From the NCBI GenBank assembly GCA_963663475.2, contig CAXXJV010000001.1, positions 2,304,001-2,368,000 of the forward strand: a stretch of 64,000 nucleotides of DNA, given 5' to 3'. The notes under the pieces are model-generated. The model made no database searches. It worked only from the letters and a program-made list of their open reading frames with translations, and was not told where the DNA came from. Below are positions 2-44,264 of the stretch, piece after piece (position 1 is the first letter of the stretch; the number at the start of each line of letters is the position of its first letter). This DNA comes from Candidatus Cloacimonadales bacterium. GTDB lineage: Bacteria > Cloacimonadota > Cloacimonadia > Cloacimonadales > JAFGVF01. A program made the position numbers and the translations under genes.

Positions 2-97
2 GACACAGATACAGGTTCAATCTTAAAGCAACAAATCACTGATTTAAAAAAGCTACTATATGCCTATTCACATGGCGATGTAAAGGAAAAATTATAG
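2..97 (+). CDS. fbp: 3' end of class III (Firmicutes-type) fructose-1,6-bisphosphatase, truncated at window edge
   Basis: Frame 2 reads DTDTGSILKQQITDLKKLLYAYSHGDVKEKL* (TAG 95-97), resembling the DTDxGxxLxxQIxDLxxLLxAY C-terminus of class III Fbp; only 31 aa visible. Confidence 0.6.
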   Translation, partial: DTDTGSILKQQITDLKKLLYAYSHGDVKEKL

Positions 98-112
98 GTA
101 AAGGAGAATGAT

Positions 113-967
113 ATGTCTGGAATAGTATTTTTTAAAACTAAGTCATTAGAAAATATCCATCACTTTTATCACAAGACTTTGGAAATGGAAGTATGGCTAG
201 AACAAGCTAACTGTTATATTTATAAAAAAGGTAATCTCATTCTTGGTTTTCTCCAATCTGATCAAGCTGAAACTCATGGAATAATCACTATTTTTAATCA
301 AAGAAAAACAGAAATTGATCAATATTACAAGAAATATGCTAATCTAGTAACTCAAGATCTAAAGGTTAACGAAAAGTTTAACATATACCATTTTTATATC
401 TGTGATCCTGAAGGAAGGAAAATTGAATTTCAAACCTTCTTACACCCACTGAATGCTTATCATTCACTAGATGAAGGATTAGTTAAAAGACGCTCAATAA
501 GAAACTTTAAGGACAAACAAGTAGAAAAAGAAGTTTTAGATAAGATTTTTTCTTTATGTCGTTATAGTCCTACTGCTAGAAATAGTCAAAGCTATTACTA
601 TTTAGTAATTCAAGACCCAAAAGATCTTAACTGGTTAGCTAATAGCAGAGGACCTGCTGGTAATCCTATAAAACAAGCACCAATGGCTGTTCTTGTAATT
701 TCTGATAATACTAAAACTAGAAGACTTGAACAGGATGCTGATATTGCTGCTACATACTTTATGTTAGCTGCTTATAGCTATGATGTAGCTAGTTGTTGGA
801 TTACTGATATGAACAAAGACCAAGTAAAGTCTTACTTTAATATTCCCCAAGAATATCATATTAGTTGTGCTATTGCTACTGGATATGCAGATGAATTTAA
901 GGTAATACCAGAAAGACGATCAACTCATGATTTTGTCTATTATGATCGATATGATATTCAAGATTAA
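113..967 (+). CDS. VOC/glyoxalase-like domain fused to nitroreductase
   Basis: N-terminal FYICDPEGRKIEFQ (VOC); C-terminal RRSIRNF, SPTARNSQ, ASCWI, IATGY (nitroreductase); AAGGAG RBS. Confidence 0.85.
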   Translation: MSGIVFFKTKSLENIHHFYHKTLEMEVWLEQANCYIYKKGNLILGFLQSDQAETHGIITIFNQRKTEIDQYYKKYANLVTQDLKVNEKFNIYHFYICDPEGRKIEFQTFLHPLNAYHSLDEGLVKRRSIRNFKDKQVEKEVLDKIFSLCRYSPTARNSQSYYYLVIQDPKDLNWLANSRGPAGNPIKQAPMAVLVISDNTKTRRLEQDADIAATYFMLAAYSYDVASCWITDMNKDQVKSYFNIPQEYHISCAIATGYADEFKVIPERRSTHDFVYYDRYDIQD

Positions 968-1040
968 CAGTGCATTATGATTAGGTGAGTAGCAATAATT
1001 TACCATAAAGCTTCTGCAAAGATTATTATTTAAGTTTAAG

Positions 1041-1075
1041 TAGATTAGGGACTGGTTAAAGCTGTCCCTAATCTA
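1041..1075. terminator. Hairpin between convergent genes, probable bidirectional terminator
   Basis: 12-bp inverted repeat TAGATTAGGGAC / GTCCCTAATCTA. Confidence 0.6.
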
Positions 1076-1108
1076 TTATAAAATGCAAAATCCCTTATTT
1101 CTTCCATG

Positions 1109-1171
1109 ATCCTTTCTTTACAGTCTTTCGATGAAAAGCGGACTTTCATCGAAAGACTGTAAAGGAAGGAT
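1109..1171. repeat. Long palindromic element family P, copy 1
   Basis: 21-bp perfect stem CTTTACAGTCTTTCGATGAAA, loop AGCGGAC; homologous to 28570-28628 and 53589-53645. Confidence 0.9.
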
Positions 1172-1220
1172 AATGGATGGATAAAGAGACATATCTAGAA
1201 TTTATAAAAAGATTCTGCAT

Positions 1221-1256
1221 TCTTCCCAAGAATTCTGAACTCTTCCCAAGAATTCT
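1221..1256. repeat. Short tandem duplication
   Basis: TCTTCCCAAGAATTCT twice, period 20 nt. Confidence 0.8.
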
Positions 1257-1268
1257 ACTGTGTTAGGG

Positions 1269-4200
1269 TTAATTATTATTTTTAGATTTTTTTTTGATTC
1301 TGTCGATTTGTTGTTGAGTAAAATCAGAATAATTTACATCTCCAGCATCTTTAAAGAGGAGATAAGCTTCTTCAAGTTTTTCAATAGCTTTTTGGTCATT
1401 AGCTAAAATTTCAAAGGTAATACCCCAGTTAAATAAGGCCTTTCCTTGTCCGATCTTATCACCGATTTCTTGCAAGCTATGATGTTGAATTTGGTAAAAT
1501 TCTAAGGCTTTGGGATAATTTTTCTCTTCTCTGAGAATATTAGCAAGATTCCCTATTGTATGGGCAATTCCTTCTTTATCTTGAAGCTCTTTTTGAAGTT
1601 CTAAATTTGATTCATAGTATATTTTAGCTTGTTTGAAGTCTTGTTTATTGAAAAAAGCATCACCAAGTCCGTCATTAGCATAAGTAATACCAATTTTATC
1701 ATTTATTAATTGAGCTATAGATTTAGCCTCTTGAAGATATTTTATAGCAAGGTCGAAATTTTGCAGAATGCTGTGTACATAACCAAAGTTGTAAAGAACA
1801 GTCTGCTCTTGTTGTTTATCTCCAATATACTTAGCCATCAATAAGCATTTATCTAAGGAATCAATGGCTTCTTGATCTTTACCTTGAGAGAAGAGAATCA
1901 TTGCTATTTCGGTATTTACTTTAGCAAAACCATGTTTATCCCCGATATTTTCAGCTATAGCAAGAGCTTCTGTAAAGTATTTTAAGGCATGATCTTGATT
2001 ACCTCTTCTTATCTCAATAATACCTAAGGAAGTTTTAGAGATGCGCAAGAAAATCTTTTTATTATTTTGGGAGGCTAGTTTACCTAATTTTTGGTAGCTA
2101 GCATTAGCTATATCATATTCAGCTCGATCTAGTGAATCTTGTCCAAGAATAGAATAATAGATTATTTGTAGTAAAGGTGATTGCTTACTAATCTCATTTT
2201 CTAACTTATTTTTTAAATTAAAGAATTTATTTCTAGCATTAGTCATTCTGAAATAATCCAACATTATTAAATCAATTCTTTGTTTTATTTCTGTAGAATT
2301 GATTTGTTTTTTTATATCTTCATGAAGTAATACTAGGTTTTTATAGTCTTTTTGGATATCTAACAATCTAAATTTTGCCAGATAGTAGAGATCTTTTTCT
2401 TGGTCATTTAGAAAATCAATATTTATTAAATCAAGATATTGTGTTACTTGAGGAGCTTTATTTTGTTCTAAGAATGAATTAACTAACTTTAGTTTTATTT
2501 GATTTTTTGTAAAATCATCAGTAGCAAAAGAAAGGGCTTTTACATAGTAATATGAGCATATTGAATAGGAAGCTTGCTTTTGGTTTTTATCAGCTGCTAA
2601 AAGAGACCATTTACAGGCTTGAGCAGGTATTTGGGCAGAAATAAAGTGATTAGCAATGACTTCATAGAAGGGAAGTAGATTATCTTTAAATTCTTGTAGA
2701 TAATAATTAGCAATTGTTTTATGAAGCTTACGTTTCTCAGTGAATAAGATTGTTCTGTAAATAGCATCTCTCATCAATGAATTATTAAAGTAATATTCAA
2801 TTTCGGGTAGAATTATTTTTTTAAAGAGTTGTTGATTTTGAGTTAGATTTTCTAAGACCTTTTCGATTTGGATTTGAACGAAGTCTTCAGAAAAGATATT
2901 TAAAACTTGATTATTAAAACTTACCCCCATGATAGAGGCATACTTTAGGACTTGTTTAGTTTGAGCATCAAGAGATTCAAATTCATTTAATAGAAGTGTT
3001 TCGAAAGTATTTGGTAATTTACCTTTTCTTACAAGTTGTTTAAAATCATTAAGATCAAATGTGCTATAATTATCAGTTAAATTTTCTTTAATAAGAGAGC
3101 ATATTTCTTTTATATAGGCAGGATTATTGTTAGCAAGCTTCAAAATCTCTTTTAAAGCAGCAGGAGTAATACTTAGTTTATGGAAGGAGACAAAATCCCT
3201 TAGTAAGTCTTCATCAAAATCTTTCATTTTAATAATATCTTGGGAATATAATCCATAACTAAGAAAAGAATCTAAACTACTAGAAGTTATACTAAGTCTT
3301 ATATTTTTAGAAAGTAATTTAGGAATAAGAATTTCTAGTAGTTTGGTTGATTCAAAATCTAACCATTGGAGATTTTCTAGAATTAGAATTTGATATTCTT
3401 CTAAGAGTAGGATTAATATTTCGGATAAAAGATCTAGGAGTAGAGGTAATTCTTTTTGCTTAATTTCACTATCACTTTCATTAAAAAATTCTTCAATTAA
3501 AGTCAAATCAAGGTTAATTTGCTTATTCTTCAAAAAATCTTCAATATGGGAAAGATCTGTTAGAATATTATCTAGTTTAGCATAAGCATTAAAAATATTA
3601 TAGAAGAGTGTGAAGGATTTTAGTTTATCATATTCACTCAAAACTAGAATTTTTACATGCTGATTATCATTTTTGTTTTTTAAATACTCATAAATTAGAT
3701 GAGATTTTCCGCTTCCTGATTTACCATAAATTAGGTTTAGCTTTTTATTATCCATATCTGCTAAAATATCATTATAAGCTATTAATTTACTATTTTTAAA
3801 CTTGTCAACATAGGCTGTCCAGTAATCAGAAAACTCATTACTAACATGATAAATTTCAATATCTTTGCTTATTCCTTTAACATTAACTTTATCTATGAAT
3901 TGTGTTTGATAACGTCCTTTGATAAATGGAAGGATTTCAGAAGAAAAAGCAAAGTCATTATCTTGAGATTTACTCATTAATCTTGCAGCAATATTAACCC
4001 CATTTCCTATAATACCATATTCATATCTGTCTATTGCCCCTAAAAGTCCACTGTAGATATTATTGTAAGTTAGGCCAATTTTTGTTTTTATAGCAGGAGT
4101 TTCAAGCTTGGATACTTTTAAACATGTGGCAAAAGCTCTTTCAATATCATCTTTATGGATAAATGGTACACCAAAGGTTATTAGTATTAAATATCCCTTA

Positions 4201-5009: not shown

Positions 5010-5076
5010 GATTTCTCTCCCAGGCAAAGATAAAATATATATTCAACTTAGATTAGATTTTGACAAGTAATTTCTC

Positions 5077-5124: not shown

Positions 5125-8100
5125 TTAATTCTTTTTAGACTTTGATAGAGAAGGTTTGATGATATTACCATCCCTTGTAAGGTATCTGTGAGTGTTGATA
5201 AAGTCTTCTAAAGACATTCTTTGGTTATTAACAAAACCAATAATGAAATAGAATTGTCTTGGAGCAAGTTCAGCAATATTAGAGTCTGTCCAAGTCAATT
5301 CAGTGACATTATCTCTATACTCATAGATACCATCTGCATCCAAGCAAGAATAGATTAAATAGGAAACATTGGCAACAGGTGAACCTGATATACTTTCACT
5401 AATTTCATTCCATTCTAGGATAATATCAGTATTTGACATTGAAATAAGAGGGTATTGAGGAGCAGGAAGAGGGTCATCTTGAGTAACCACGAAACCTTGT
5501 CTATTTACAATATCAGTGAAGGAACCAGTTGTCATAGTCAAAGTAACATTATAGATACCTGGTGATTGGTAAATATGTTCAGGATTACGTAAGCTACTTG
5601 AGTGACCATCTCCAAATTCCCATAAGATATCAGTAGTTGGATCATCATGACCTTCTGATTTATTATCGAAGTAGATAGGTATTCCAGGAGTATTGAATCT
5701 ACTGCTTGAATTGAAATTTGCTAGGTGGTGATGATAGTTCATACCAATATCAGCAATTGAACCATCAGGGTCTAAATCTAGGTTAGGGTTACCACCATCT
5801 ATGCAATTAGAGTGAATACTTAATTCTAAATTATGAAGATCTGAATCTGCAAATAAAGGGTCAGTATTCATATTGCCAATTCCAGGTGCATTATCAATAG
5901 CCATGGAAATATTGTTATATTCAAAAGTAGTTTCAATATCATTTCCACTGGCAAGATCTGCTTCACTAATTGGACTACCCCAAATAATATTCTGACCAAA
6001 ATAGAGAGAGCTGTTATTTGCATTAACAATCTTAGAATAAGAAAGTATATTATTATTTAAGATTTGAACATTTTGGATATCAGAAGCAAAGAGGAAGGTA
6101 GCAAGATCACCTAAGCTATTCTCTATATGATTATGATGAATCTGAGGCAAACATTCATTACCTGTAAGATCAAAAGAAACTAGGTTATCGAGGAAAGTAT
6201 TTCTCTCAATAATGGCATTATTATTGCCAGTAACTTTTAATCCACAAGCAAAGCCTGCTATTTCAGAGTTTCTAATCCAGGAGTTAGCTTGATTATTTAA
6301 AGTGATACCAACACCTAAATTTCTGCTAGTATTACTAGTATGTCTTACTCTAATATTTGTTAGGGTCGGGATAGTTTCATCAGATGAATCTAGATAAATA
6401 CCCGACATTACATTTTCAGATTCGAAGTCATGTAAATCTAAATTCAATAAACCAATACTTTTGAGAGCAAAAGCGTCAGTTCTAGAGGTATTAGTAGTGT
6501 GTCTAACTCTAATATTAGTTAAAACAGGAGTAAGAGATTCTGTACGGGAAAGATTTTCTAGGTAAATACCAGTTAAGCAATCTTCAATGAGAAGGGAATC
6601 AAGTAGAGCTTCAACCTGACCACTAATGTGGATACCAAAACCACCTAATTCTCTAGAAGTATTAGTAGTGTGGCGGACTCTAATATTAGTTAATACAGGG
6701 CTAGAGGAAGATGATGAGTAAATTGAAATTCCATCATGAACATTATCAGATTCAAAATCATCAAGAGAAAGATTTACTGAGCCTACACTATTGAGGGCTA
6801 GAGCGTCAGTCCTTGATGTATTAGTTGTATGACGAACTCTGATATTAGTTAAAACTGGAAGACTAGATTCACTTCTATTAGAGTTGTCAAAGTTCAATCC
6901 AGTGACATAATCTTCCAAAATCACATCAGACATTTGTGGAGATACATTACCCATACAGGTAATAGCAGTTCCACCTAAGTCTCTTGATGTATTAGTTGTA
7001 TGTCTTACTCTGATATTAGTGAGAGTTGGATTTATCGATTCTGAAGAATCATAGAGTATTCCATTATAGATATTATCTGATTCAAAGTCATTAAGACTCA
7101 TATTTACCTTGCCTAGAGATTTCAAGGCATACGCATTAGTCCTTGAAGTGTTAGTTGTATGTCTGACTCTTATGTTGGTTAAAGTAGGAGTAATAGCTTC
7201 TGTTCTGCTAGAATTATCAAAAATAATACCAGTGAGATAATCCTCGATTTCTAAGCTATCAATTACAGCATTAACACTTCCTGTAAATTCAAGGGCAGTA
7301 TCGGCTAATTCACGTGAAGTATTTGTTGTATGTCTTACTCTGATGTTTGTTAATACTGGACTAGGTGAAGAGTTCAAGGCATCGAAAGACATAGCCTTAG
7401 AAAAATCTTCAATTTCAATATTGCTAATGTTTGGTGAAGCATCCCCTTCTACTTTTATAGCATAAGTGTCATCTAACCTACTTGTATTAGTAGTATGTCT
7501 AACTCTTATGTTTGTAAGAACAGGAGCACTTGAACCTTGAGTAGATTTGATCTCAATAGCTTTAGCAAAATCTTCAATATCTAGATTATCAATATTGACG
7601 TTGGAGTTATGGATTTTAACAGCTATAGGATCGTTTTCTGTTCTAGAAGTATTAGTAGTATGTCTAACCCTGATATTTGTGATTACTGGAATATCTAAAG
7701 AAGCATCACCTAGTATTTCAATACCAGTGTTATATTTATCAATATCTAAGTCATCAATTATAGCTTGGCTAGGTCCAGAAATCTTTATTGCTGAATGTTC
7801 ACTATCCAGACCTTGAATAGTTAAGCCAGTTAGATTTGGGGAAGCTCCATTAATCTCGATTGCTTTTCTAGCATTTAAGATATAAGAGTTGGAAAGACTA
7901 GATATTTCGTCTGTAGAAGTAAATTTGATCCCTTCCCATTCACCTACTTGTCTTTCTTCACCAGCTACAGTTCCAAAAGTGACTCCATCTGCAATCAAGC
8001 CACCAGAAACAATAAAGTATGTATCTTCCATGATATTGATAACAGTTCCAGGCTCAATGTTTAAACTTGTACCACTTTCTACAGAAACTTGACCATAAAC

Positions 8101-11100
8101 ATTGTATGGAGACAGAGCTACTTGCCAATCACCAAAGTAATTACCACCAGGAATAGAAGTTCCTTCAACACTAATATAATTCTCATATCTTACACTATCA
8201 GAAGTTACTAGTATATCGTCTTCATCGATATAAGATACTACAAGTGATACTGAATATTCCCCCCCAATATTATAGTTGATACTTGGGTTTTGGAGATATG
8301 AATCTGGCACATCATCATTATCTAAATACCAAACCCAATGATTTGGATTACCTTGGGTTAAATCAGTAAATTGAACAGTTTGTCCTGAAAGAATTTCTGT
8401 ATTATCAGCAGTAAATTCAGCATTAAAGGAATCAGTTATTGTAATATCAATATCCTGTGAAGTAACTAGTCTGCCTGAACCATCACTTACATTTACTGTC
8501 AATGTTTCTGTTCCTGCCCAATCTTGAGGAGCATAGAAGGTAACTTCAAGACCTAGAATATTGTAAGTTACATGTTCATTATTATCAATACTTAAACTCA
8601 ACAATGATAAGCTTTGCTCAGGATCATAAACATGATTTGCAAAATCTATCACTTGTCTGGTAGTTTGTAAGATAGTAATAGACTCTGGAAGTTCTATGAA
8701 GTATGGAGCATCGGCAACATCGACAACTGTAACAGTAATAACATCACTCACAATACCTTGGTGATTGTCGGAAGCTGTGAAAGTTAATTCTTCAATTCCA
8801 AACCAATCTTGATTAGGTGCTAGAGTTACTATGCCATTAGTGATGCTTACATGAATATTATGATTACCAGATACTGTGAAGATGAGATTATCATTATCAC
8901 CATCACTGAAATATGTTCTTAAGTCAATCTCTTGGTTAATAGCATCCTCTTCCATTACTATATTAGGTATTGGTGAGGTTAACACAGGAATAGTATTTAT
9001 TACACTTATATAGTTATTTCTAAGAAGTGAATGACTTTCACCATTTTCGTTTTCTACAGTTAGTCTTACTGAATAACTTCCTCTATTTTCATAAGTATAG
9101 CTAGGATGAATCTCATAACTATCAACTATGCCATCGTTGTGGAAATCCCATTGATATTCACTTATCTGGGAACCGTCAGAAGTTTGAGCTAAGTTAGTGA
9201 AGGTAACTTCAAGCTCTTTTGGTCCACTAAGTGGAGTAGCTGTGAAGTTAGCTGTAATCAATCTCTCTGTTACTGTCATGGTTACATAGATTAATAAAGT
9301 TGAATTATCTGGGTCATCAGAATTAACTTGTACAATAGCGTTATAGTTTCCTTCAGTTAAATCGTAAGCAGAAAAACTTAGTTCAACTTCTTCACTTAAA
9401 CCTTGAGGAATAGTTAATGAAGTTGGTTCAACACTTAACCAGGAAGTTCCACTTACCCTTATAGATGAGATATGCAAATTACTATTCCCAGCGTTTGTTA
9501 TAGTGAATTGACCACTATCTGTTCCAAAGCGTGGTATAGTTGTAGCTATTGAAGTAGTTGAAAGCTCAATTTGAGGAGCTTCTATAGCTGTGGCACTTAA
9601 GGTAATGATTTGACTTTGGTTATTTGGGTCGTTAGACTCAATAATTAAGTTCTCAGTGAAAGTTCCAGCTTCAGAACTTTCAAAGGTTACAGTAATTGTT
9701 TCACTTTCTCCATTTTGAAGTACAAATGCTCTGTTAACTACACTGAAGAAACCATTTGAAGTTGTAAGTGAAGAAATACTAAGAGGGGCATAACCTTGAT
9801 TAGTTATCTGAATATTTTTCATTTTTGGATAACCAATATAGTTGCTTCCAAAATTGATTTCATTATTCACACTTAGAACTGGGTCTCCTGAAAGAATATT
9901 GAAATTAGTAGTTCTTTCACTTTGTTTTATATTTGTTGCAACATCATAGATGGCAAGCTTAACACTATAAGTGCCAATTTCACTATCAGGAGGTAAGTCT
10001 AAGTTTGCACTTGTTTGCTGATTTGATGTTACAGACAGATTAAGAGTCTCTTGATAGGTGTCAATCACTTGTAAATCTGGATTCAACAATTCATATTCAG
10101 CTCTGACAGCTTGATTATAAAGCTGAGTAGTTATGATAGAATTAACTTGAACTTCTTCTCCAGGATAATAGTTTGATCTATTCAAATTTAAAGAACTTAT
10201 AGTAGCATAAATCGGAGCTTGATTAAAGACAAACTGACCCCAAATTATTCTTGAATAACCAGAATCTGTACTATTAACATCTAATGAAATCTCAATCTCA
10301 TTAGCAACATTTTCTCCTAAGTTAATTAATTCAGGATTAATCATAAATTCTGTAATACTGTAATTGTTATTGCTGCCAACAAGTTGACCAACCCAAGTAC
10401 CATTTACAAAGACATAATTGATTTCTCCTGAGTCGATATCATAAGCTCTGATTCTTAATTTGGCGTAGTCAACCTCAGACTCATTAGTATAAATAAAGAA
10501 TTCTACAGGAGCATTTGGTGAATTCTCACTAATATTTATCCCAAGATCATTATCAGTAGTTTCTACAAAATCATTGCCAGCATTATCAGTATCGGTGAAG
10601 TTAAAGTTAGAATGATTAAGAATCATAGGTAGAGATAATTCTGAATTATCAGGGTCATTACTTGTAATAGTGAAATTAGCAAAATATGAGCCATAGTCTA
10701 TGTTCCTGGTATCTAGGGTTAGATTTATGGTAGCAGAAGCACCAGCTTCTATACTTCCTGAAGCAGGATTAGCAGTAATCCAAGGAAGCGCTAATGTCTC
10801 GGTAGAGAGAGAATAATCTAGTTGAGCTTGTCCTTCATTGCTGATAACTAATTCATCATAATAAAGAGTGTTATCCAGAATAAACCAATCTAGGGATGTT
10901 TTGTTTATAGTAATCTGCGGAACATTAACTCCACTACCACTCATATTTATTTCTAGACTGCTTTCATTATTTGCATTTGAAGTAATAGTCAAAACAGCTG
11001 TTTCTTCAGTATCACCTGTTGGAGTATATCTAACAAGCATTACTCTGTTATTACCAGGTTGGATATTGATAGGACTGTTCAAAGTTGGAAGAGACATTGA

Positions 11101-14100
11101 AACAAAATCAGGGTGTGAAGAACCGATATTGGTAATTCTCAATATTCCAGTTCCTTGATTGTAAAGAGTATATTCCAATTCTCTGTAATTTCCTACATTG
11201 ACTTGCGAGAAGTCTAAATTATCAGTTGATACCAATATTTCAGCAGTCGCTTCAACACCGTAACCTGTCAAAGCAACATGGTCTTCCCCATTCTCATCAT
11301 TACTAAGAATAGTTACACTTGCAGTCTTTGCACCTTGACTTAAAGGTGTGAAGGATACAGTAACACTTCTAGATGCTTCAGGAGCAAGGGTAAAGGATGG
11401 AGGACTTACTAAGAATTCATTACTTTCAAGGCTAACCGAAGATACTTGTAAAATAGAAGATCCAGTGTTAGAAACAGTAAATGTCTGATTTGCTGAGTTT
11501 CCAATCAAGACTGAAGCAAAGTCAATATCTGTCTCAGAAACTGAAATACTTGGATTACCTGATACATTTAGTTGAACAGGGATTTCTTGACTGCCTTGAG
11601 GGTCATTACTATTCACCAGCAATAAGGCTGAGTAATTTCCTGCATATACATCAGCTGCTGATAGATTTACTGTTACAGTTTGACTAGTTCCTGGATTAAT
11701 GTCTCCGGAAGTTGGAGTCAAACTTAACCAATCATTTGCTTCAACACTCCTACTTCTGCTATTATCATCACTTCTACTCCCTCCATTAATCATTATCTCA
11801 TAGGAAAGTGTTCTATCTCCAGAGTTTGAGATAATTAGCTCTCTATCTTCACTTTGTCCGTACTCTAATGATGAAACAATATTTTCAATAGATAAACCTA
11901 TGATTGGTGGTAGATAACCTTGTCCATTTAGATTAACTGATACTAATCCAATATTGGTTTGAATATCCATTATAGCATCAAATTCAATGTTGTTATCAGG
12001 ACTAAATTCAACATTAATATCGCTTGATGCTCCAGGTGCTAAAGAGCTTATATTTGTATTTGTTGTGAATATTCCAAGCGGTGTGAAAGTAATTGATTCA
12101 ATGGCTAGATCATCGCTTCCTATATTGCTAAGGCTTATACTCTGAATATCTGAATAACCGACTGCAACTTCACCGAAATTAATCTGACTGTCACTAATCT
12201 CATACTCAGGATAACCTTGAACACGCATAGTTACAGGAAGATTAATTAATGAATTCTGTGGTACATTAGATGTTAATCTAACACTTCCACTATAATCACC
12301 ACCATAAATACCTGTAGGATTAAAGGTAATATTGATGTCTTGATAATGGCCAGGTGCAATAGTTCCTGAAGTATTATCAGTAGATAACCAACGACCATCA
12401 TCTACTTGGAAAAGAGGACCAGAAACATCACTTATCCATAGATCTTTGCCATTGCTGGTAAAGGAGTAGATTACATCGTTATCCCAGAATGAATTCTCTT
12501 CTGTAACTACAATTGAGCTATTTACTAATTGTAGTTGAAGAATCTTTCCACCAATAATTACCTCATCTTCAATTGTATTCTGTAAAGCCCATAGTTCATT
12601 GTTATAATAGTCTTCTACCCAAACTAACTGGCTAATATTCATACCTAGGTAAGCACTATATGTCTCGAGAATATCACCATTGTGAGCAACTCGATAAATA
12701 CTTGACACAGGATTATCTCCAAATGCTCGGCTAATTAAGAAACTATCCCCCATATAGGTAAGAGCAGGGAAGTAATCAACAGGTGAGGAGAAGGATGCAA
12801 TAGGAGGATTTGTAGAAGTATTCAAGGTTGTTGGGTCGTAACAATAAACATTACCTGATTGATTACCAATCCAGAAATAGGTACCGTCATAAGTAATTCC
12901 ATAAGGCAAAGTATGAATAGGATAACTTTCGGTAATTTGATAAGTTTCTAAATCGTACTTAAGCAATCTTCCTGTAGCTTGAACTTCATTATCACGGTTA
13001 AAATCAACAATATATAGTTCATTATTTAACCAGTATAGTCCAGCATTCCAAGCAGGCATATTTGGATATGTAGCTATCTGATCACCAAGGAATCTATTAG
13101 CTTCACTTGTCACTAAATTTTGATATGGTAAGTCATTTATGACTATATTTCGGCTTTGGTCTGCAAAGAAACCCATTTCTCTTAACTCATAGTCATTAAT
13201 AAAATTCTCTTCACGTGAATTTACTTCATCAAGAGCAAGAGAATAAATTAAATTTGAACCACCGTTGTTAGTCAGCCTAAGAACTTGGCTTTCTTCTTCG
13301 TCTACTGTGAGATTAGCAAGAAGGGAAGCAGGATTGACTTCAAATGTTGGTTCTCCTTCAGCAATACCTGATAATTGAATTATATATTCACTATTAGCTA
13401 TATCATTAGAGTAAATAGTCATTTGAGCTGTTTTCACACCGCTGGATAGTGGAGTAAAACTTATGCTAATACTTTGACTTGTTAAAGGTTCAATACTTAT
13501 CTGGGTTTCTGTTACAGAGAAATCACTACTATTAAACATAATATTGTTTATTTCTAAGTCTGAAGAACCTGCATTTGCTAATTCAATCTCTTCAGTGAGA
13601 GTTTGTCCAATAAAGCATGTAGCAAAATCAAGCTCATTCTCAGATGATACTAACACAGCTTGTCCGATAACATCTAAGATAACATAAATTTCTGAGCTTG
13701 GCGTTTCTGCATCGTTACTATGAATATCTAGAACTGCTTCATATCTGCCTGCCATGAGATTCCTAGCATTATATTCTAAAGTAACAATTTGGTTTTCACC
13801 TTCTACTAATGAACCTGAATCAGGACTTACAGTTAACCAGTTAAACTCATGGATATTGTCTTCTATTCTGTATAATTTCGAATCAGTCTCTGAATCAGGA
13901 GCAATCCATAAATCTCTGCCATTATGGGCTAGGGCATAAGAAGTACCACTAAATTCATTATAGCTAATCTGCTTCAATAAACTTCCATCTGTAGGATTTA
14001 ATTGTCTAATCTTATGAGCAGAATAATCAAGCGCCCAAAGTTCTCCACCTGTGTGGTCAGCAACCCAAACTATCTGATTCATCTTGCCATTAAAATTAGT

Positions 14101-17100
14101 ATCTATAGTACTAATAACGCTACCATCAGTATCTAAAGTATAGATTTGAGGATTATTAACTGAAGAAGGAGAGATAATAAAGTTTTCTCCATTCCATGTC
14201 ATTGCATAATTACCTGTAAGAATACTGTTAAATTGATCTACCTGATTACCAGCTAAGTCATAAGCATAGAAGGTACTTGAAGATGAGCCTATCCATAAAT
14301 ATGTTCCGTCATAAGTAATCCCGAATGGTGAAGAGTGAATAGGATATTGAGCTATTACGCTTTCATTGCTAATGTCATATTTATATAACTTATTTTGGCT
14401 ATAAGAAATAATATACAAGTATCCATCTACCCAAACCATACCTTTATTACTGTTAGGAAGATTATCAAAGACACCAGATACTACATCACGATCTAAGACT
14501 TCTATAAGCTCAATATCAAAGTTAAGTTCTTCTCCTTGAATATTGCTTATAGTTAACTCTTGATTTGTTACCTGACCACTGTTAACAGTAGCTGAGAAGG
14601 AAGATGTGGATAAGGCGATTTGAGGAGTATAAACCCCATTACCAGTTATCTCAAGACTTCTCACTGCATTACCTGGTAAGTTAGTAGTAAAGGTAAATTG
14701 ACCTGAATAAACCCTTTCTGCTTCTGGAGTGAAATTAATAATGATTCTTTGGCTTTCATTTGCTTGAATACTTAACTGAGTAACTTCAGTAGTGAAGACA
14801 TCCTCTGATATGTTAAAATTACTAAGATTTAGAACATCACTTCCTGTATTGGTAATTAAGACAGATAGGGTATCAGAGTAACCTATATAGCTATTAGCAA
14901 AGTCAAGAGTCTCAGGAGTGATTACTATATTAGGAATACCTGTAACATTTACAGTTAGTGGGATTTCTATAATACTCTCATCAGGGTCATTAGAAGTCAT
15001 TTCTATTACTTGGTTATAAGTTCCTCCAATAATATCAGAAGCATCTAAATTAATATTGAGAGAAGTTAGGTTTCCTGGTCCAAGTTGACCTGAAGTGTTA
15101 GAGAATGAAATCCAGCTGGGAATGGTAGAGACATTACTTTCTGAAATCCCAGCATTACCATAAATAACACCAGTTGTTTGATAAGAAGAACCATCACGAA
15201 GGTCTTCTTGATCGAAGTTCCAGTAACCACCTAAATTCTGTTCATTACCTAATAATCTAACATTTCGGTAGTTAGCAATTTCAGTATGACTTCTAGCAGA
15301 TTCCCAAATTCTGAATTCATCAATGCCTCCATCAAAGCGATACCAGTTAGAACCAGTTTCACTCATCTTTCCCAATATCCAGGGGGCATAATTACCAGTG
15401 AAATTAACTACTTCTTCTTGAGTAATCTGATTGCCATCTAGATAAACGGTCATGATATTATCATTGTAAGTTACTGCTACATGATACCATTGATGAAGTT
15501 CAATATTATTAGCTACTAAGAATTCTCTATTGCTTCCATTGTTAAGAGCAACTTTAAGATTCTTATCACTTTCTTGATTATCTATTCCATCAGTATAAAT
15601 ACCAAATGAACCAGTCTGTGAAGATACAGATTTACTAACTATGCATTGCTTACCACCATTATAGATAGAACCATTAGAACTTTGACCAAGGTTAGAATCA
15701 ACTTTAAACCATAGTTCAACACTAAAGCTTCCTCCGTAGAGTTGAATAGGAGCTCTATTTCTTATATATCCATAATCAACGCTTGGAGAGTTAAATCCAT
15801 CTACTTCAAACATCATTCCAAAGTTATCTTTGATGTTCCAGGTTAATTCATTTCCTCCAGTATTACTTATCTCCAGATTTTCACTAATATTCTCACCTAC
15901 ACTCATAGCAATTTCGATGTCATTAGGAGCATAAGTTACTTGAGGAGCAATTGAACCCTGTCCAGAAACACTGATTACGAAGTTTGGTTGGTTATCAGCA
16001 TTACTGATAATTGTGATATTACCTGAGTATTGTTGAACAGCAAAAGGTTCAAACGTTACATTAACAAGAAGCTCTTCATTCGTATTTATAATAGCTCCTG
16101 CCAGATTATCATCCACAATAAAGTATTGATTATCAGAAATGATATTAGTAATTTCCAGTGGAGCAGGTCCTACATTTCTAATAGTAACTTCTTGGCTTTC
16201 TGGTACAATAGTATAGACATTACCAAAATCAAGAGAAGTATGAGAAACTTCAATATATGGAACATTCTCTATACCAATACCAGTTAAAGCTATAAGGAAA
16301 GCTGGAGTATTTGAAGCATTACTTATAATAGTCAAATTACCTTCCACTTGCCCTAGAGAGCTTGGAGTAAAAGAAATTATTATATTCTGCGATTCATTAT
16401 ATCCTATAGTTGTAGAAGTAATATTTGAAATAAAGTTTGCATGATCACTTGAAATTTCTGAAATAACTAAATCAGCATGCCCAGTATTAGTTATTGTTAT
16501 GATTTCTTGGCTTGTTTCATTTTCTAATACTGGTCCGAAATCTATAGTGTTAGTTTCAACAAAAATCTCAGATTCATAGGGTTTTACTTCAAAATTACTG
16601 GTGAATAAAGCTTGCTGAATATTGCTATTATTATCATATACTATTACTTGAAGCTCATAAATACCAGGACTATAATGGTCAGCAATTTCTAATGATTCGC
16701 TAAAAGCATCACTTTGACTTCCAATTATTGTTAAAACACGTGATGTACCTGTTACAATAGTGTCCCAAGGAGAATAGATAGTGGTCTCTACTCTAATCTC
16801 TTGATTCGCAAGATTAGTATCAATCTCTTCAGTAACACCAACATTTGCTCCCGCATAATAAGAAGTTTGATCTAAATCGATATATCTAATAGAAGCATTT
16901 AGACTTGTATTATCATAGCTTAACTGGCCCCAATCTACCTTGATAGAATTTCCGACAAAGTCACTGTCTACTTCTATCTCGACCTTGTTTACTAAACTAC
17001 CATCTAAATAACTGGGTTGAACTTCAAATAAAGTTGTTGTCCATGTATCACTTAATCCTCTTAATTCACCTAAAATATAATTATTAAGATAAACTCTATG

Positions 17101-20100
17101 AACTCCACCACCTGCATTATCGACATTCCAAGCTCTAAGGCTTAGTTTAACAGTCTCTGGATTAGGATTGTTACTAAAGATGTTAAATTCTATTGGTGCA
17201 TTAGCACTGTTATAACCAACAAGAACATCTAAGTCATTATCACTAACACCTAGACCACTGTTGTCATCATTATCAAAATCTGTAACATTATAGACTTGTC
17301 TGACAAGTTGTAAGTTAACATTTGTTACTGGGCTACCAGGCACATTACTGTTAACAGAAAATGAGCTGTCATAGATACCAGCTACTAAATTAATTGGATT
17401 AACTGTTATGGTAACTACTTGCTCACCAGCTGCTTCTAACTGCCCCATAAACGGATTAAAACTAACCCAGTTATCATCTGATTCAAGGTTATATTCTAGT
17501 GTTGAAGCACCGTTGTTTCTAATAAGAATTGTCTCTGTATCAAGACCACTGCCAAGAACATAGAATTCCAAGTCTTGACCAATTACCTCAATTTCTGGAG
17601 GATTTATTGCTTGGGCAAAAAGAGAAAGAACTAAAGGATTATGAAGATAATCAGTAGAATATATGTTTAAAGAAGCATCATCATTCCCTATGGTTTCTGG
17701 ATTAAAGCTTACTTCTATTGTTCTACTTTGACCAACAGGTATAACAAAATTGTTATAATTAACTGAATAATAATTACCAGTTGAGCTGATATTATTAATT
17801 GTTAATGTTGAAGATCCCGTATTATTGATTACTAAAGGTAATACTTGATTACTGTTAACGAAAACCTGACCAAAATCAAGTGAATTAGTAGAAACAGATA
17901 TTTCAGGTAAACCTAAAACTGTAAAAGTAACAGGTACTTCTATAAATTCCTGATTAGGGTTGTTATGATTAAATAAGATATTGGCATGATAGACACCTGC
18001 ATTTAAATCTGAAGCAGAGAATGTTATGTCAACTACTTGGTTTTCATCGACTTCAATATTACCAGAACTAGTGGCGATATCAAGCCATTCGGCAAGTCCA
18101 CTTTCTTGATAAGTGACAGATTCAAGTCCCCATTCTAAGGAACCTAGACCATTATTCTCAATTGTGAAAGTACTTGGGAAAGTCTCACCAGTTAAAACAG
18201 AAATAGTGAAGTTTTCTGGACTTACACTCATCTCAGGAGTTGGCCAAATATCTACCATAAAACTTAGGCTTATCTGATCAGAATGGTTATTATAAGCAGT
18301 TAATTCAATTTCAGCACTACCAAACATGTCTTCAGTAAAGCTCAAAGTTAAATTCATATCACTTATACTAGTTGTTACCAGCTCTTCGAAAGTATTTAGG
18401 GTTATTTCATAAGAGGTTATCTGACTATCAACATCGTAAAATCTTTCAGCTAGGTTAATCTCAAGGTCGGGACTATTCATAGGTTCATAGACATTATCAA
18501 TTGGATTATTCACAGACATTGGGTCATCTATCGAAGTAACAATTACCTCAATATTATCAGAAGCAATAGCTCGTGTTCTTCCAACATTAACTCTAGAAAT
18601 CCCATCTCCTGCTTGGTCATCTACTGTGAAGTATAAGACCTCGCTACCAAACCAATCAGGCATTGCAGAAAAGGTAACCATAAAACCATCAATCTCAGTA
18701 TAAATATTACTACTTTCTTCACAAGTTAATATAAGTTGATCATCCTCATCAATATCAGTTATATACTCAGAGAAATCTACATCTAAAGTAGTGTCTTCTT
18801 CAAAAGTGAATAATTCTGGAAGATTAATGTTTGGGTTATGATTAATAGCATTAACCCTAATATAATCTTCTTTAGTTTCTGTAACTGAACCGCTATCATT
18901 ACTGATAGTCAAAGAGACAGTATAGCTTCCTGGTTCTTGATAAACATGGTATGGATTTTCTTCAAGAGAAGAAGTTCCATCTCCAAAATCCCATAAGTAG
19001 GAATTACTATTACCAATTGATTGGTTAGTAAAAATCAACTCATCATATTGAGTACATATTGTTTCAGAAGCAATAAAGGCAGGATTTAAATTAATATATG
19101 CAAATATATAGTTGCTTCCATACCAAGAGCCTAAAGATATTAGATAATTATCAATATTATCATGAGCCATATAATTACCAGGTTTATTATGTTCATGACG
19201 TGAAGCATAATAATACCTAGAACTATTATAACTTGGGTCACCATTTCTTTTTACATAAGCTGAACTTCCATGATCTTCTAAACCTAAACTATCATACAAT
19301 ACTAGCAAGTCTTCACCGCGGTTATGATAAGCAACTAAATCGTACCAATCAGCTACCCTATAATCATTTCCAAGCAAGTTGTTGATAATTTCATCCCAAT
19401 TGGAATCATCTTCATAAGCTAATGTTGTTCTAGCAAAGTTATTGTAAAGATAGCTACTATTGAGAACAGTTATATAGTCTTCTTTCACTTCTGTAACACT
19501 ATCATCGCCCTCAAAAATAGTTAAAGAAACACTATAGCTACCTGCTTGTGTGTAGGTATGTAGTGGATTAGACTCGTTTGAAAAATTACCATCTCCGAAA
19601 TCCCAATAATAAGTTACATCACCTTGAGTGGAAAGATTAGTAAATTGGACTTCTTGGCCTGTGATAACTTGCAGATTATCAGTTGAAAAATCAGCTATAA
19701 GTTGATGAACAGTCACATTAACCCTATTGGAAGGATTAGAATCAACAGCTCCATAAACTTGGGTAACATAATATTCATATGATCCATTAGGTAAGTCATA
19801 ATCAACATAAGTCATAGTTTGAGCATCAAGACTAGCAATCAGAGATTCATCACGATAAACTTTATAGCCTGTCAAATCTCTTGTATTAGAGGAGTAGTCG
19901 GTCGAACTAGCAATTGGTCTTGTATAGCTAGCTAGAAGACTTTGCTTTTTACTATTAGCCTTTGATGTTAGCTGATATAGAGGTTGATAGTTTGAAACTA
20001 GTCTATCTTGTCCTGAATAGGAAGCGAAGGCTTTAATATTAAAGTTTACAGTTAATGATGAACTAAGATTATGGAGATAATCCCAATTTGAGCTATCATT

Positions 20101-23100
20101 AAACCTAATCATATTTCCACCTTCAACAAGCGGACCATTATCAGCTCCAGCTGGTAATCCTGATGGAGTATTGACTCTATAGCCAATATATAGTTGGCCA
20201 CTAGTAGGGATAGCTATTGTTGAATCAAGAATATATTCATTCCATTGTTGATTTTCAAAAGAAGTTATATTCTGAGAATAAAGTTCATCCATACCTGATG
20301 GTCCACCCCAAACTTTGAGAGTATAAGTTGCCTCTGCAACTCTTGGGAACATTTTAATAGAAGTTAAGTACATACCTTGATAAGCCAAGAGTTCTTCAGA
20401 TGTATATTTGAGAGCTACTGAGAATTCTGCTGCATTATTAGTTCCTATACCATTATAAGACGTGTCATTACATTTTTGTAACCAGACACCATCTTCTTCT
20501 TGCCAGTTTAGAATAACATCATTGTCGTTATCCTCTACATAAGCACTTAGTCCACTTGGTGAAGATACATAGACAGTCATGTATTCAGTTTTATATTCAA
20601 TATCGCTTGAATCATCATTATAGATAGTTAGCTTAACATCATAAGTACCTGGATAGTAGTAGGTATGGTTAGGATTAGCTTGGCTGGAATAAGAATCATC
20701 GCCAAAATCCCACTCATAAGTGTCAATATCACCGAGGGATAAGTTAGTAAAAGTAACTTCACTATTAGCAGAGATAGTTTGTTGAGATACAGTAAATTGT
20801 GCAACAAATTTATCTTCCCAACTTAAATAAGGATAATGACCTGATGAGAAAGTCCAAATATCTTCGCTTCCATTAGCAGATTCTCCTTGGAAATCCCAGC
20901 CTAAATCAATGAAGTTTGCTTGATCTAGAAATTCAAGACTACTTATACCTGCAAAATTAATTAAGTTACCAGTATTACCACCAGCTCCTAATTCAATATC
21001 ACAAGTTTCATTATTCCAGAGTGAATTACTTATTATAGATCCATTATTGAAACCTATAAAAGCACCTATTGAATTACTTCCGGAGACATTACCTGTGGAA
21101 TAGCAATTGACTATTTGTCCTGACTCTGAAGAAAGACCAACAAATCCTCCCACATAATCATCCAAACTTTGAATATTACCACTAGCATAAGAATCTGAGA
21201 TACTACCATTATTGTCAGCTACCAGACCTCCCCCATAAGAACCAGCACCATTAACGTTTGCTGAAGAATATGATTGAGTAATTGTTGAACCTGCCATATT
21301 CTTAGCCACAAGTCCACCTGTGTAAGAACCAATAGAAGAGATTTGTCCCTGACTATATGATTTAAAGATATGAGAACCATCATTAAAACCAACTAATCCG
21401 CCCACATTTTCTACCCCGTGAACATTACAGGAAACGTAAGAGTTTTCAATTGAGGCTCCACTTTGACTGTAGCCTACAAGACCACCTACAAAGTGGCCAG
21501 AGCAATCAATATTTTCAAGAGCAAAGGAATTAGAAATAGTTGATGAAATATTATAACCAACAAGTCCTCCTACTATATATGAACCATTCAAAATAGCCTC
21601 AGTATAGCAATTATTTATTGTAGATTCATAGTTATTACCTACAAGACCTCCAACCATCGTATTACTAGCCTCAGTACCTGTTATAATACCAGTTACTGAG
21701 CAATTTTCTATAAGTGTATTGGCGTAAGTTCTACCTACTAAACCTCCAACTTTTTCATTTCCATATACTTGAATATCAGAAACAAGCAGGTTAGATATTG
21801 TAGCTCCATATGTATAACCAAAAAGGCCAACATATTCTGCTTGAGGTAAGTTAATGTAGTAGTTGCTTATAGAGTGATTATTACCATTATAGTTACCCCT
21901 GAATAAATTACCCCATTCATAACCAATTGGACTAAAGCCTGAACCTTGAACATATTGACTTGATTCCGCATCGATATCAGCTGTTTGTTCAATATAGATT
22001 CCTTGTCCCCAATATTCATTATTTTTGGTTAATATGTATAAATCATCTATATCATTTATAAGGTATGGTGATTCTTGGCTACCTTGTCCTTGGAGAATTA
22101 GCTCATTAATTTCTACTTGAGCAATATTGGATGGGAATGATTCAATATCCCCATAAACACCAGTCACATAATAATATGATTGAGTATTAAAGATTGGGTT
22201 GTTATCTTGATAGTTTCCCTCAAAGACAGATGCTATCATGTAATAAGTATCATTATCATTATCAGCAGATCTATAAACACTATATGAATCTGGAATAATT
22301 CCTGAACTTGACCCAGTCTCTACTTCTACTCTTAAGGCTACATTAGAACATGAATAAGCATCTAGGGTACTTTGCCATTGCTCATTTGCATATGTGTAAG
22401 AATTAGCAGGACTACTAGTTGTTTCCATTAATAATCCAAAATTTGATGAGTTTTCATAATTGGCAATACCGATAAAAACGTTAGTGTTAGCAGGTATAGT
22501 CCAATTTTGATCAGAAACATCTATATTACACCAATCTGGATGAATCTGATTGATTGTTGTTGCTAAAGAATATAGTTCATTTCCAGGAAGGCCATTATCA
22601 TCAGACCAGACCTTAACATCTATATAATTATTTGTTAATGTCCCATATAAGACAAAGCCAATTGTATTAATTTGCATATTAGAAGAACTTGTATTTTCAG
22701 CTAATATAGCAAAAGTATTTTCACCATTTGCAAAATACTGCCAATTTTCATCTGTCCATTTAATCTCTTCTATACTTGATTCTATAAACTCGTCCCAAGT
22801 TAGATTAATGTTGGGATAATCTACTTGAGCTATTAAGTTTGTTGGAGCAGGATAATCATTAGTAATCTCTATTTCTACAACATTTGAAGCTTGTGATTCC
22901 TCTTCATCATAAACTGCTGTTACGTAATAAGAATATATATTACCCACTTCAATATTTGCATCACGATAAAGAGTATCTGGGATAACAGATTCAGTGATTT
23001 CAATACTATTTCGATAGACTTTATAGCCTTGCAATGCTCTTGTTCTACTTCCAGTAAACTGATATGGAGACCATGTTAAATCTATAAAGTTACCAACTAA

Positions 23101-39430: not shown

Positions 39431-40540
39431 TTAAATTTTCCATTTATATTTCATAATTACACCTCTTAAAGAGAAAATTATGAAGATTAAAACATATACT
39501 AGTGTAAATAAAAAATAGTATATGATATATTTTTTTTTATTAATTTTTATACAAAAATAGGTCATCATGAAAAGTTCAAAACCTATTCTTAAAGCCAATA
39601 ATATACAAAACATAGGCAATGAATCCATATTAAATGGGAGTAATATTGCCATAACAATAAAATATATATAATAAAAGAACACTAAGAGGCTAAAAAGTTT
39701 TAAAGCCCATGGGAAATACTTAAATTTGGAAGCTCTCCTAGTGTCAAGATTTACATGTGATGAAAAACTTTCTTTCTCCATGGTAATTACTGATGCTTGA
39801 GGTGTAAAGAGATACTTTTTCTTTCTTAGATGAATCCAAAGATTAAATAACTGTAAATCATCATCACCAGATTTAATATTTTTGTACCTACCAAAACCTT
39901 TAGCTTTTAGATAAGAACTTTTTCGGTAAGACATGTTGGAAGCAGAAGCTGTCATTGGAGTTCCATTCCCTAAGCCACTAGCAGCAATAACTCGATATAA
40001 TATAGCTTCAAAAGTCTTAATTCTATTAAAAAGGGTCTTCTTATTAAACTTAACATGGGTATAGGCTAAAATATAATCAGTTTCATCATCATAAGCCTTT
40101 GCAAAGGTCTCGATCCACTTAGGATTAGCTATACAGTCTGAATCTGTAAAAAGGAGAATATCATGACTAGCATGGTCAATTCCTTTAGCAATAGCATATT
40201 TCTTGCCATTTCGTCTTCCTTTTTCAGGTAATTCAAAAAGTTTCATATCTAGCTTTGAACTTTCCATATAGCCACATATCAAGCGATTAGTGTTATCATA
40301 ACTTCTATCATCTACTATTATTACCTCAAAGTATTCCTTAGGATATGTTTGGTCTTCTAAGGACTGTAATAAGCTAAGTACATTATTTTCTTCATTTCTT
40401 GCTGCAATAATAACAGAAATATGCTTTTTTTTATTATTGTCTATAGTACTTTTCCGAGAAATTCTTAAGAGACCGAGTATTAAATACGAGATTAATAATA
40501 TATAGATTATTGAAAATATTAAAAAACTTATTCCTAGCAT
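39431..40540 (-). CDS. Family 2 glycosyltransferase, membrane-bound
   Basis: VIIAARNEE, VDDRS, GKK.A, TDSD, SGDDD; N- and C-terminal TM helices. Confidence 0.9.
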   Translation of the reverse strand: MLGISFLIFSIIYILLISYLILGLLRISRKSTIDNNKKKHISVIIAARNEENNVLSLLQSLEDQTYPKEYFEVIIVDDRSYDNTNRLICGYMESSKLDMKLFELPEKGRRNGKKYAIAKGIDHASHDILLFTDSDCIANPKWIETFAKAYDDETDYILAYTHVKFNKKTLFNRIKTFEAILYRVIAASGLGNGTPMTASASNMSYRKSSYLKAKGFGRYKNIKSGDDDLQLFNLWIHLRKKKYLFTPQASVITMEKESFSSHVNLDTRRASKFKYFPWALKLFSLLVFFYYIYFIVMAILLPFNMDSLPMFCILLALRIGFELFMMTYFCIKINKKKYIIYYFLFTLVYVLIFIIFSLRGVIMKYKWKI

Positions 40541-44262: not shown

Positions 44263-44264
44263 AA

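Follow-up and report, generated by a model that had tools for sequence, protein, structure and literature searches.

What are nine near-identical copies of a 13-residue peptide doing in a single giant protein? This question is raised by a locus of a Candidatus Cloacimonadales bacterium (GenBank assembly GCA_963663475.2, contig CAXXJV010000001.1, positions 2,304,001 to 2,368,000). We will call this 64,000-nucleotide stretch the window, and coordinates are positions in it unless another sequence is named. The giant protein is encoded by a single open reading frame (ORF) on the minus strand (5125..28131; 7668 amino acids). An earlier note, made from the DNA alone, had singled out its repeated peptide and proposed that each copy sits on a projecting loop of a beta-helix. 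We found that the 13-mer is not peculiar to this protein: it forms the conserved half of a two-rung beta-helix repeat of the Cloacimonadota that had not been named before.

A regular-expression scan of the product for TNIRVRHT[TS]NTSR gave exactly nine matches, at amino acids 6818-7270, which correspond to 6322-7680 on the minus strand. In the order of the protein, the copies lie at 7642..7680 (copy 1, TNIRVRHTTNTSR), 7477..7515, 7312..7350, 7141..7179, 6982..7020, 6811..6849, 6652..6690, 6481..6519, and 6322..6360 (copy 9, TNIRVRHTSNTSR). The successive spacings are 55, 55, 57, 53, 57, 53, 57, and 53 amino acids. The sole substitution among the nine is a T to S change in copy 9. This agrees with the earlier note, which had placed the copies at 6321-7683 with a period of about 53-57 amino acids. 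No other 8-mer of the giant protein recurs more than nine times, and all of the top recurrent 8-mers belong to the motif. Nine exact copies of an 8- to 13-mer in one protein cannot be due to chance. An alignment of the units extends the invariant block beyond the 13-mer, to an invariant proline three residues upstream (P-x-[LI]-TNIRVRHTTNTSR).

Based on the motif scan, the unit alignment, and a structural model (see below), the array comprises nine two-rung units of 53-57 amino acids (6205..7689, minus strand; amino acids 6815-7309). In units 3-8 (6205-7365, minus strand), subtypes A and B of 57 and 53 amino acids alternate, which makes three super-repeats of 110 amino acids. Outside the motif, amino acid identity is 0.39-0.57 within a subtype and 0.17-0.35 across subtypes. 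The 57/53 alternation is also present in the orthologs from the same genus. The motif was described as basic in an otherwise acidic protein, and its composition bears this out: 27 of the 31 arginines in the 495-residue array lie inside the motif, the rest of the array has 58 aspartates or glutamates as compared to 13 lysines or arginines, and the computed isoelectric point of the giant protein is 4.05. All nine copies also contain N-T-S and end in arginine, as had been reported. An 89-residue ORF overlaps the array on the opposite strand (7547-7816, plus strand); it looks like a by-product of the composition of the repeat.

Are the copies similar because they were duplicated recently? Among the nine copies, amino acid identity is 98% in the motif and 28% outside of it. 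The corresponding values are 79% and 45% for nucleotides and 49% and 39% for third positions of codons. The serine of the motif is encoded by TCA (four times), TCT (three times), AGT, and AGC, and its arginines are encoded by AGA, AGG, CGT, and CGC, so both codon families are used for each of these amino acids. We compared the codon identity at identical residues to the identity expected if codons were drawn at random from the gene's own usage (2000 simulations). The observed value is 0.480, the expected value is 0.476 +/- 0.042, and 45% of the simulations reach the observed value. Also, Tandem Repeats Finder does not report any array at the DNA level. No DNA-level similarity remains in this array. 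Codon identity at its expectation, together with the lack of a Tandem Repeats Finder array, rules out a recent DNA duplication, as the earlier note had argued from the use of both serine codon families. Because codon identity equals the expectation, gene conversion is ruled out as well as the cause of the identity of these nine copies.

To describe the repeat in other proteins, we searched 1.84 billion representative proteins exhaustively with HMMER, using the 771-residue beta-helix region as the query. There were 422 matching proteins at E <= 1e-3, 134 at E <= 1e-10, and 75 at E <= 1e-30. The commonest recurring 7-mers in the matched proteins are variants such as PTLTNIR, TNIRVRN, and NVRIRNT. 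With a loose pattern, the core PxLTNxRxRN was found at least three times, at intervals of 53-60 amino acids, in 105 of 150 matched proteins. We then iterated a hidden Markov model (HMM) of the unit once over the retrieved proteins (including our own fragment, P0001, and excluding P0002, which is a near-duplicate of the query). This yielded 811 units in 123 proteins, and the homologous arrays have from 4 to 24 units. The consensus of the unit is STPTLTNIRVRNSTNSSRTDSTGIKLSGNVSATIDNLEIEGYDTGIEIENSNRT, or in short form sTPtLTNiRvRNS..s.R....G, with a length of about 55 amino acids.

The best-kept columns of the unit are P3 (95%), N7 (93%), R9 (89%), G45 (88%), R18 (87%), G23 (82%), and R11 (79%). 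All nine units from the window fit this definition: they have a period of 53-58 amino acids, the seven residues just listed, and, following column 12, a loop of some 10 residues, and each of them scores 84-96 bits against the unit HMM. In contrast, the column that contains the histidine of the window motif is N in 68% of the family's units and H in just 8%. The earlier note had counted free variation of R, H, N, and S among homologs as evidence against its idea. Such variation is seen at the histidine and at the T-T-N-T-S positions, while N7, R9, R11, and R18 are conserved.

The earlier note did not recognize a named family, and neither did we. Pfam has nothing on the array above threshold: the only match is to NosD (16.6-17.6 bits; the cut-off is 23.6), and it lies at the last unit and mostly after the array. 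NCBIfam has no match on the array, just a tandem-95 repeat upstream (below the cut-off) and noise. A sequence search of the PDB gave 0 matches at E <= 1. All clusters obtained from the ESM Atlas were generic beta-helices (scores of 0.90-0.93), and recognition was below the mark. The few source names of matched proteins are "hypothetical," "PKD domain-containing," "choice-of-anchor D," or "right-handed parallel beta-helix repeat-containing," and all are from metagenome-assembled genomes (MAGs) of Cloacimonadota or Cloacimonetes. The repeat is not described in those parts that we saw of the literature on beta-helix or giant proteins of Cloacimonadota, on type IX secretion in Cloacimonas, or on arginine ladders.

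To examine the distribution of the repeat within the phylum, we built an HMM from the nine window units and scanned 232 Cloacimonadota genomes. There were matches in 93 of the 232 genomes, in 70 of the 151 high-quality genomes, and in 29 of 66 genera. The six other genomes from the same genus all match, one of them weakly. This is the motif search across the phylum that the earlier note had proposed. For other phyla, we searched one genome from each of 185,579 species with a back-translated DNA pattern for P-x-L-T-N-I-R-[VI]-R-[NH]-[ST]-x4-R. By our own arithmetic, fewer than one match is expected by chance. We found 32 stretches: 30 have titles with Cloacimonadota, -ales, -aceae, Cloacimonas, or Cloacimonetes, and the other two are titled "uncultured bacterium." The strict form of the motif appears to be restricted to the phylum Cloacimonadota.

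What does the unit look like? We built an AlphaFold2 model on a 35-sequence alignment. The model is a right-handed parallel beta-helix of 771 amino acids (5746..8058, minus strand), with a mean predicted local distance difference test score (pLDDT) of 90.6, a predicted template modeling score (pTM) of 0.86, and two rungs and four strands per unit. In the model, as assigned by DSSP, strand 1 of the unit is x-L-T-N-I-R-V-R. The following H-T-T-N-T-S-R and the next 3-4 variable residues lack secondary structure, and the pLDDT of this block is 71-74, as compared to 93-98 around it. The other strands form an ordinary rung pair (...G-I-x-L..., then I-x-N-L-E-I-E-D-Y-x-x-G-I-x-F). The model thus agrees with the proposal of about two rungs plus a loop per unit.

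A Foldseek search with the model found polysaccharide lyase family 6 (PL6) and tailspikes, with probabilities of 0.99-1.0. VIA-align gave Z scores of 28.0 for Vag8 (7akv_G, root-mean-square deviation 2.9, 382 residues aligned), 27.9 for NosD (7o0y_A, root-mean-square deviation 3.2, 303 aligned), 26.5 for K5A lyase, 26.1 for RbmB, 25.6 for pertactin, 25-26 for PL6 lyases, 24.8 for AlgG, 23.8 for PfbA, 18.8 for TibA, 17.4 for Ag43, and 16.6 for the binding region of the serine-rich repeat protein (SRRP) from Lactobacillus reuteri (5nxk). The predicted structure belongs among the right-handed parallel beta-helices, and no single family is singled out. Of 35 family members in the alignment, 16 match NosD and 11 match PF13229 (E <= 0.01). 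In some relatives, PF13229 or NosD aligns over the array itself (P0093 615-769, P0057 262-405, and P0047 480-687). Because Beta_helix and NosD align across the array in these relatives, the repeat is a divergent PbH1-type double rung, in which the short turn of every second rung is replaced by a loop of 11-12 residues.

The orientation of the side chains can be predicted from the pattern of the columns. Hydrophobic residues occupy columns 8 and 10, and in 96% of units column 39 is hydrophobic together with column 10. When rung A (N-I-R-V-R-N) is placed on rung B (N-L-E-I-E-G), columns 38 and 40, which are opposite R9 and R11, are acidic in 50-57% of units (35-39% E and 14-18% D). Columns 8-37 and 8-36 co-vary (z = 5.2, at the level of protein consensuses and with kinship uncontrolled), which is weak support for this register. 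From these three observations, we infer that the I and V of the motif are core residues and that its two arginines point outwards. Since LTNIRVR is a strand with core-type I and V, part of the conservation of the motif is ordinary architecture.

Selection on the motif can be measured within the genus. Five orthologs from other genomes of the genus have the same unit spacing and the same loop sequence, with scattered single changes (R to S, T to A, S to T, and V to I). For the window gene as compared to each of these orthologs, the nonsynonymous divergence (dN) of the motif codons is 0.028-0.084 and their synonymous divergence (dS) is 1.0-1.7. In the rest of the array, dN is 0.27-0.38 and dS is 1.25-1.9. 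(dS at this distance is saturated.) The array is older than the genus, and purifying selection on the motif is roughly 5-10 times stronger than on its surroundings.

Across the family, the loops are uniform within each protein and differ between proteins. We will refer to columns 8 and 12-17 as the loop word. The word is 73.9% identical within a protein and 30.1% identical between proteins, while for 36 non-motif columns the values are 26.7% and 22.7%. Of the 102 proteins with at least 4 units, 99 have non-motif identity under 0.35, and in these 99 proteins the identity of the word is at least 0.7 in 55 and at least 0.5 in 82. The 106 proteins analyzed have 85 consensus words (a few of these are due to alignment gaps). 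The T-T-N-T-S of the window motif is not required by the family, yet it is strongly constrained in the window's lineage, which points to a context-dependent constraint. This is expected if the loops pack on identical neighbors or if they all read one ligand.

In other members of the family, selection on the protein may not be the whole explanation. We repeated the codon test for 31 arrays found in other genomes (L010-L041, without L028, which has fewer than 4 units). The mean codon identity of the motif is 0.545, as compared to 0.375 expected, and 21 of the 31 arrays have p <= 0.01. The excess is particularly strong in L016 (0.84 vs. 0.50) and L039 (0.80 vs. 0.35). Over 36 arrays, the excess is 0.15 in the motif and 0.03 at identical residues outside of it. 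This suggests short-tract conversion, or a constraint at the codon level, that is limited to the motif (about 48 bp) in much of the family. In the same comparison, the window gene has 0.46 observed and 0.50 expected, and two of four loci from its genus (L005 and L006) are near expectation. Homogenization of the motif's DNA does not operate in the window gene, whose uniformity is due to purifying selection alone.

The same genome also encodes a paralog with the opposite behavior (locus L002, at positions 498387-501767 of its contig). The repeats of L002, at 497-1764 of the locus, have the divergent unit PTMDIIRIYYSPDSWKSNR, which is preceded by a run of aspartates, and the protein has a type IX secretion system (T9SS) tail. 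The 65-residue unit is a young DNA tandem repeat with a period of 195 bp, 6.5 copies, and 94% matches. Two ORFs of the locus overlap (32..1630 and 1528..3114), which suggests that the repeat contains a frame break or an assembly error.

Given these results, what might the array do? We propose that it is an architectural ladder that also presents a ridge of arginines and loops, and that this ridge is a multivalent binding face for a periodic and probably anionic polymer. We give this a probability of roughly 0.45. In detail, P-x-L-T-N-I-R-V-R would be the first strand of an unusual rung, with I and V in the core, N as the corner ladder residue, and the two arginines facing outwards. (Asn ladders are known in beta-helices.) H-T-T-N-T-S-R and four variable residues would form an extended loop instead of the usual 3-residue turn. 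The second rung would be an ordinary PbH1-like one. Its strand, [DN]-x-E-I-E-[GND]-[YF], would lie on top of the motif strand, so that along the stacked rungs the arginine pairs would alternate with acidic ones. Nine units would then offer 18 outward arginines, 9 loop-closing arginines, and 9 identical loops in one straight row. A beta-helix rises 4.8 A per rung, so one set of arginines and loop would recur every two rungs, or about 9.6 A. The ridge would run along one face of a rigid rod within an extracellular, adhesin-like giant protein, and it could be the working surface, with a uronic-acid polysaccharide or poly-gamma-glutamate made by the cell itself as possible polymers. The protein-specific word would set the specificity, and purifying selection would keep the word uniform along the array.

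Several considerations weigh against this proposal. The outward orientation of the arginines, the charge ladder, and the stacking of the loops are predicted from the sequence pattern, DSSP, and pLDDT. The acidic residues on alternate rungs would neutralize much of the arginine row, which argues for a structural ladder of salt bridges over a site for polyanions. Packing alone can account for an exposed loop that is strongly conserved, and a founder effect can account for protein-specific words: each array would expand from a single unit and then change slowly under purifying selection. And since the motif codons of the relatives exceed the expectation, part of the uniformity across the family reflects homogenization of DNA and not selection on each copy. 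We found no conserved partner gene, ligand, or catalytic signature. As for poly-gamma-glutamate, a published study of Cloacimonadota MAGs describes its synthesis, along with elaborate envelopes and surface proteins that bear PKD domains (PMC8542988). The genome with the window does encode the synthase PgsB (contig C1 of the genome, 829364-830479; 383 bits, above the cut-off). However, PgsB is found in 205 of the 232 genomes of the phylum and the repeat in 93, and because PgsB is nearly universal, with or without the repeat, their co-occurrence says nothing.

Some of these points would fit a purely architectural role, which we consider possible but unlikely. On this account, the asparagines form a corner ladder, I and V fill the core, arginines make surface salt bridges to Glu or Asp, and each loop, rich in Ser, Thr, and Asn, hydrogen-bonds to the loop two rungs away. 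The array would be a rigid spacer of adjustable length, and binding would occur elsewhere in the protein. Half of the motif is indeed a strand with a core-type pattern, the residues opposite the arginines are acidic in about half of the units, and the number of units varies widely. Words that are uniform within proteins and variable between them are what like-on-like stacking would produce, and we did not find a ligand or a partner. But the arginines (79-89%) are much better conserved than their presumed acidic partners. Also, the loop has the lowest confidence in the model (about 71-74) and is nevertheless the most conserved part between orthologs (dN of 0.03-0.08), which is unusual for a mere connector, and the ordinary rungs of the beta-helix, in this protein and in the family, manage with 3-residue turns. 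A more ambitious form of the binding proposal, which we regard as doubtful, is that the array is a programmable multivalent reader of periodic polymers. The arginine pair and the closing arginine would give a generic affinity for anions, the 7-residue word would give specificity, the two-rung spacing of about 9.6 A would roughly equal a disaccharide repeat, and motif-limited gene conversion would spread new words.

It is improbable that the array is a homophilic zipper, in which the striped face of arginines and acids, together with the protein-specific loops, pairs copies side by side or in trans to form a surface lattice or to aggregate cells. Basic R-x-R and acidic E-x-E/D rungs do alternate on one face, words are specific to each protein, and the fold resembles those of Ag43, TibA, and pertactin (Z of 17-26), but the model is as similar to lyases and NosD as it is to the helices of autotransporters. 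A homodimer prediction for residues 120-600 of the modeled domain scored 0.00, which is neither for nor against self-association. Slightly less probable still is the idea from the earlier note that the loops are identical substrates, either for a dedicated glycosyltransferase that acts on the N-T-S sequon or on Ser/Thr, or for cleavage after the arginine. All nine window copies have the sequon and the final arginine, the loops appear exposed in the AlphaFold2 model, and the beta-helix adhesins HMW1, AIDA-I, and TibA are multiply glycosylated on their repeats. There is also a T9SS-tailed M14 carboxypeptidase about 3 kb upstream, on the other strand. However, of the family's 811 units, 393 contain the sequon N-x-S/T, as compared to 243 when the units are shuffled, and 37 of 106 proteins have it in at most 20% of their units. 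Sequon loops are not a feature of the family, and we rejected N-glycosylation as its function, although a cognate transferase was not searched for. Nothing in the neighborhood suggests the dedicated enzyme that the earlier note had proposed: the giant gene is not flanked by a gene for a glycosyltransferase, a protease, or another modifying enzyme. Furthermore, cutting the loops of a beta-helix would not free fragments, and the invariant residues of the family (Arg, Asn, Pro, and Gly) do not include a modifiable one. Finally, a ladder of His and Arg that binds metal ions is very improbable. There is one histidine per unit, aligned along the helix, but this histidine is confined to the clade of the window protein, and there are no acidic or Cys ligands among the constant residues of the loop. 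We rejected this as a function of the family given the N-dominated column described above.

The rest of the giant protein is a mosaic. It has a signal-like sequence at its N-terminus, and Pfam identifies Ig-like (HYDIN/ASH/DUF1573), PKD, GLUG, LamG, and Cadherin-like domains, then the beta-helix, then PKD; the matches to PKD, Cadherin-like, and Big_9 are upstream of the array. After the array come ordinary beta-helix rungs and a C-terminal cap (5746..6204, minus strand; NosD-like but below threshold), in which W, N, and P-x-F residues are nearly invariant among homologs. This is followed by a PKD domain (5521..5691, minus strand; PKD_4 in Pfam, residues 1214-1270 of fragment P0001). In Pfam, we did not find a T9SS C-terminal domain (Por_Secre_tail or CHU_C) in the last 1401 amino acids of the protein at E <= 1, and scanning the full-length protein did not reveal an autotransporter domain. 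Por_Secre_tail has 149 matches in the genome, and none of them is in this gene. Among the 35 aligned relatives, 8 have Por_Secre_tail and 3 have CHU_C.

The genes near the giant gene encode a nitroreductase, a cyclase-AAA-TPR protein, an ABC-F ATPase, the M14 carboxypeptidase, RelA/SpoT, and a glucosaminidase. The cyclase-AAA-TPR protein (1269-5027, minus strand; 1252 amino acids) is directly downstream and combines an adenylate/guanylate cyclase domain and an AAA_16 ATPase with TPR repeats; it may be a regulator. The M14 zinc carboxypeptidase (31223-33568, plus strand) has CarboxypepD_reg domains as well as its T9SS tail. This tail and another at 49514-53416 (plus strand) are the Por_Secre_tail matches in the window, and the 149 matches in a genome of 3.3 Mb imply a very large predicted T9SS secretome. 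The nearest glycosyltransferase of family 2 (39431-40540) lies among housekeeping genes. SelB and SelA are encoded side by side (42343-45629, minus strand), so the organism probably makes selenoproteins. There is also an IS21-type pair of an IstB-like ATPase and an integrase-core transposase (54069-56278, minus strand).

Cloacimonadota are anaerobes that abound in digesters and sediments, and most of them are uncultured. Annotations of their very large surface proteins have so far not gone beyond "PKD," "choice-of-anchor D," "beta-helix repeat," or "hypothetical." A phylum-restricted repeat is now defined in hundreds of such proteins and could receive a family model. It also has an unusual evolutionary pattern, in that an exposed loop is frozen within each protein and differs between proteins. 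If the ridge is a binding site, then it offers a handle on what Cloacimonadota attach to (substrates, partners, or their own capsule), and it is a natural example of specificity that is encoded in one loop repeated along a rigid solenoid. If the array is a programmable reader, then the 85 words in 106 proteins are a large and unrecognized repertoire of repeat-encoded, lectin-like adhesins.

How does the repeat compare to known systems? The PbH1/CASH-type beta-helices (PF13229 and PF05048; NosD, AlgG, and PL6 alginate lyases) have the same fold as the window domain (Z of 24.8-27.9), and the second rung of the Cloacimonadota unit has their ordinary N-x-x-[IV]-x-[GND]...G-[IL] pattern. Unlike them, every second rung has an 18-residue signature (sTPxLTNxRxRN[ST]xx[ST]xR) and a long loop instead of a short turn. 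No catalytic or copper-related features were identified in the window's beta-helix. The similarity observed to polysaccharide lyases and hydrolases (PL1/3/6/9, GH28, and GH87) is one of fold, and there are 0 matches to PDB sequences at E <= 1.

Autotransporter adhesins (pertactin, Vag8, Ag43, and TibA/AIDA-I) likewise place a long and regular beta-helix in a surface protein. Ag43 self-associates through the surface of its helix, HMW1 is an N-glycosylated adhesin, and in AIDA-I and TibA a dedicated heptosyltransferase modifies short repeats that occur once per rung. In contrast to the self-associating autotransporters (AIDA-I, TibA, and Ag43), the window protein has no barrel, its unit is two rungs and 53-57 amino acids instead of about 19, and there is no adjoining transferase. 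It also belongs to another phylum, and its relatives use another secretion route (T9SS tails). The TxT ladders of insect and bacterial antifreeze and ice-nucleation beta-solenoids are similar in principle: an identical short motif recurs in each coil, forms a flat periodic array of side chains, and is the best-kept part of the coil. But the fold class and the period are different, the Cloacimonadota motif is made of Arg, Asn, Ser, and Thr with a projecting loop and no flat Thr face, and there is no evidence that it binds ice or minerals. The binding region of the L. reuteri SRRP (5nxk) has no sequence relation to our repeat and no comparable repeat signature, and its context is that of Gram-positive serine-rich-repeat proteins. 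Nevertheless, it is likewise a beta-solenoid adhesin domain (Z of 16.6), and it binds a polyanionic polysaccharide, polygalacturonic acid.

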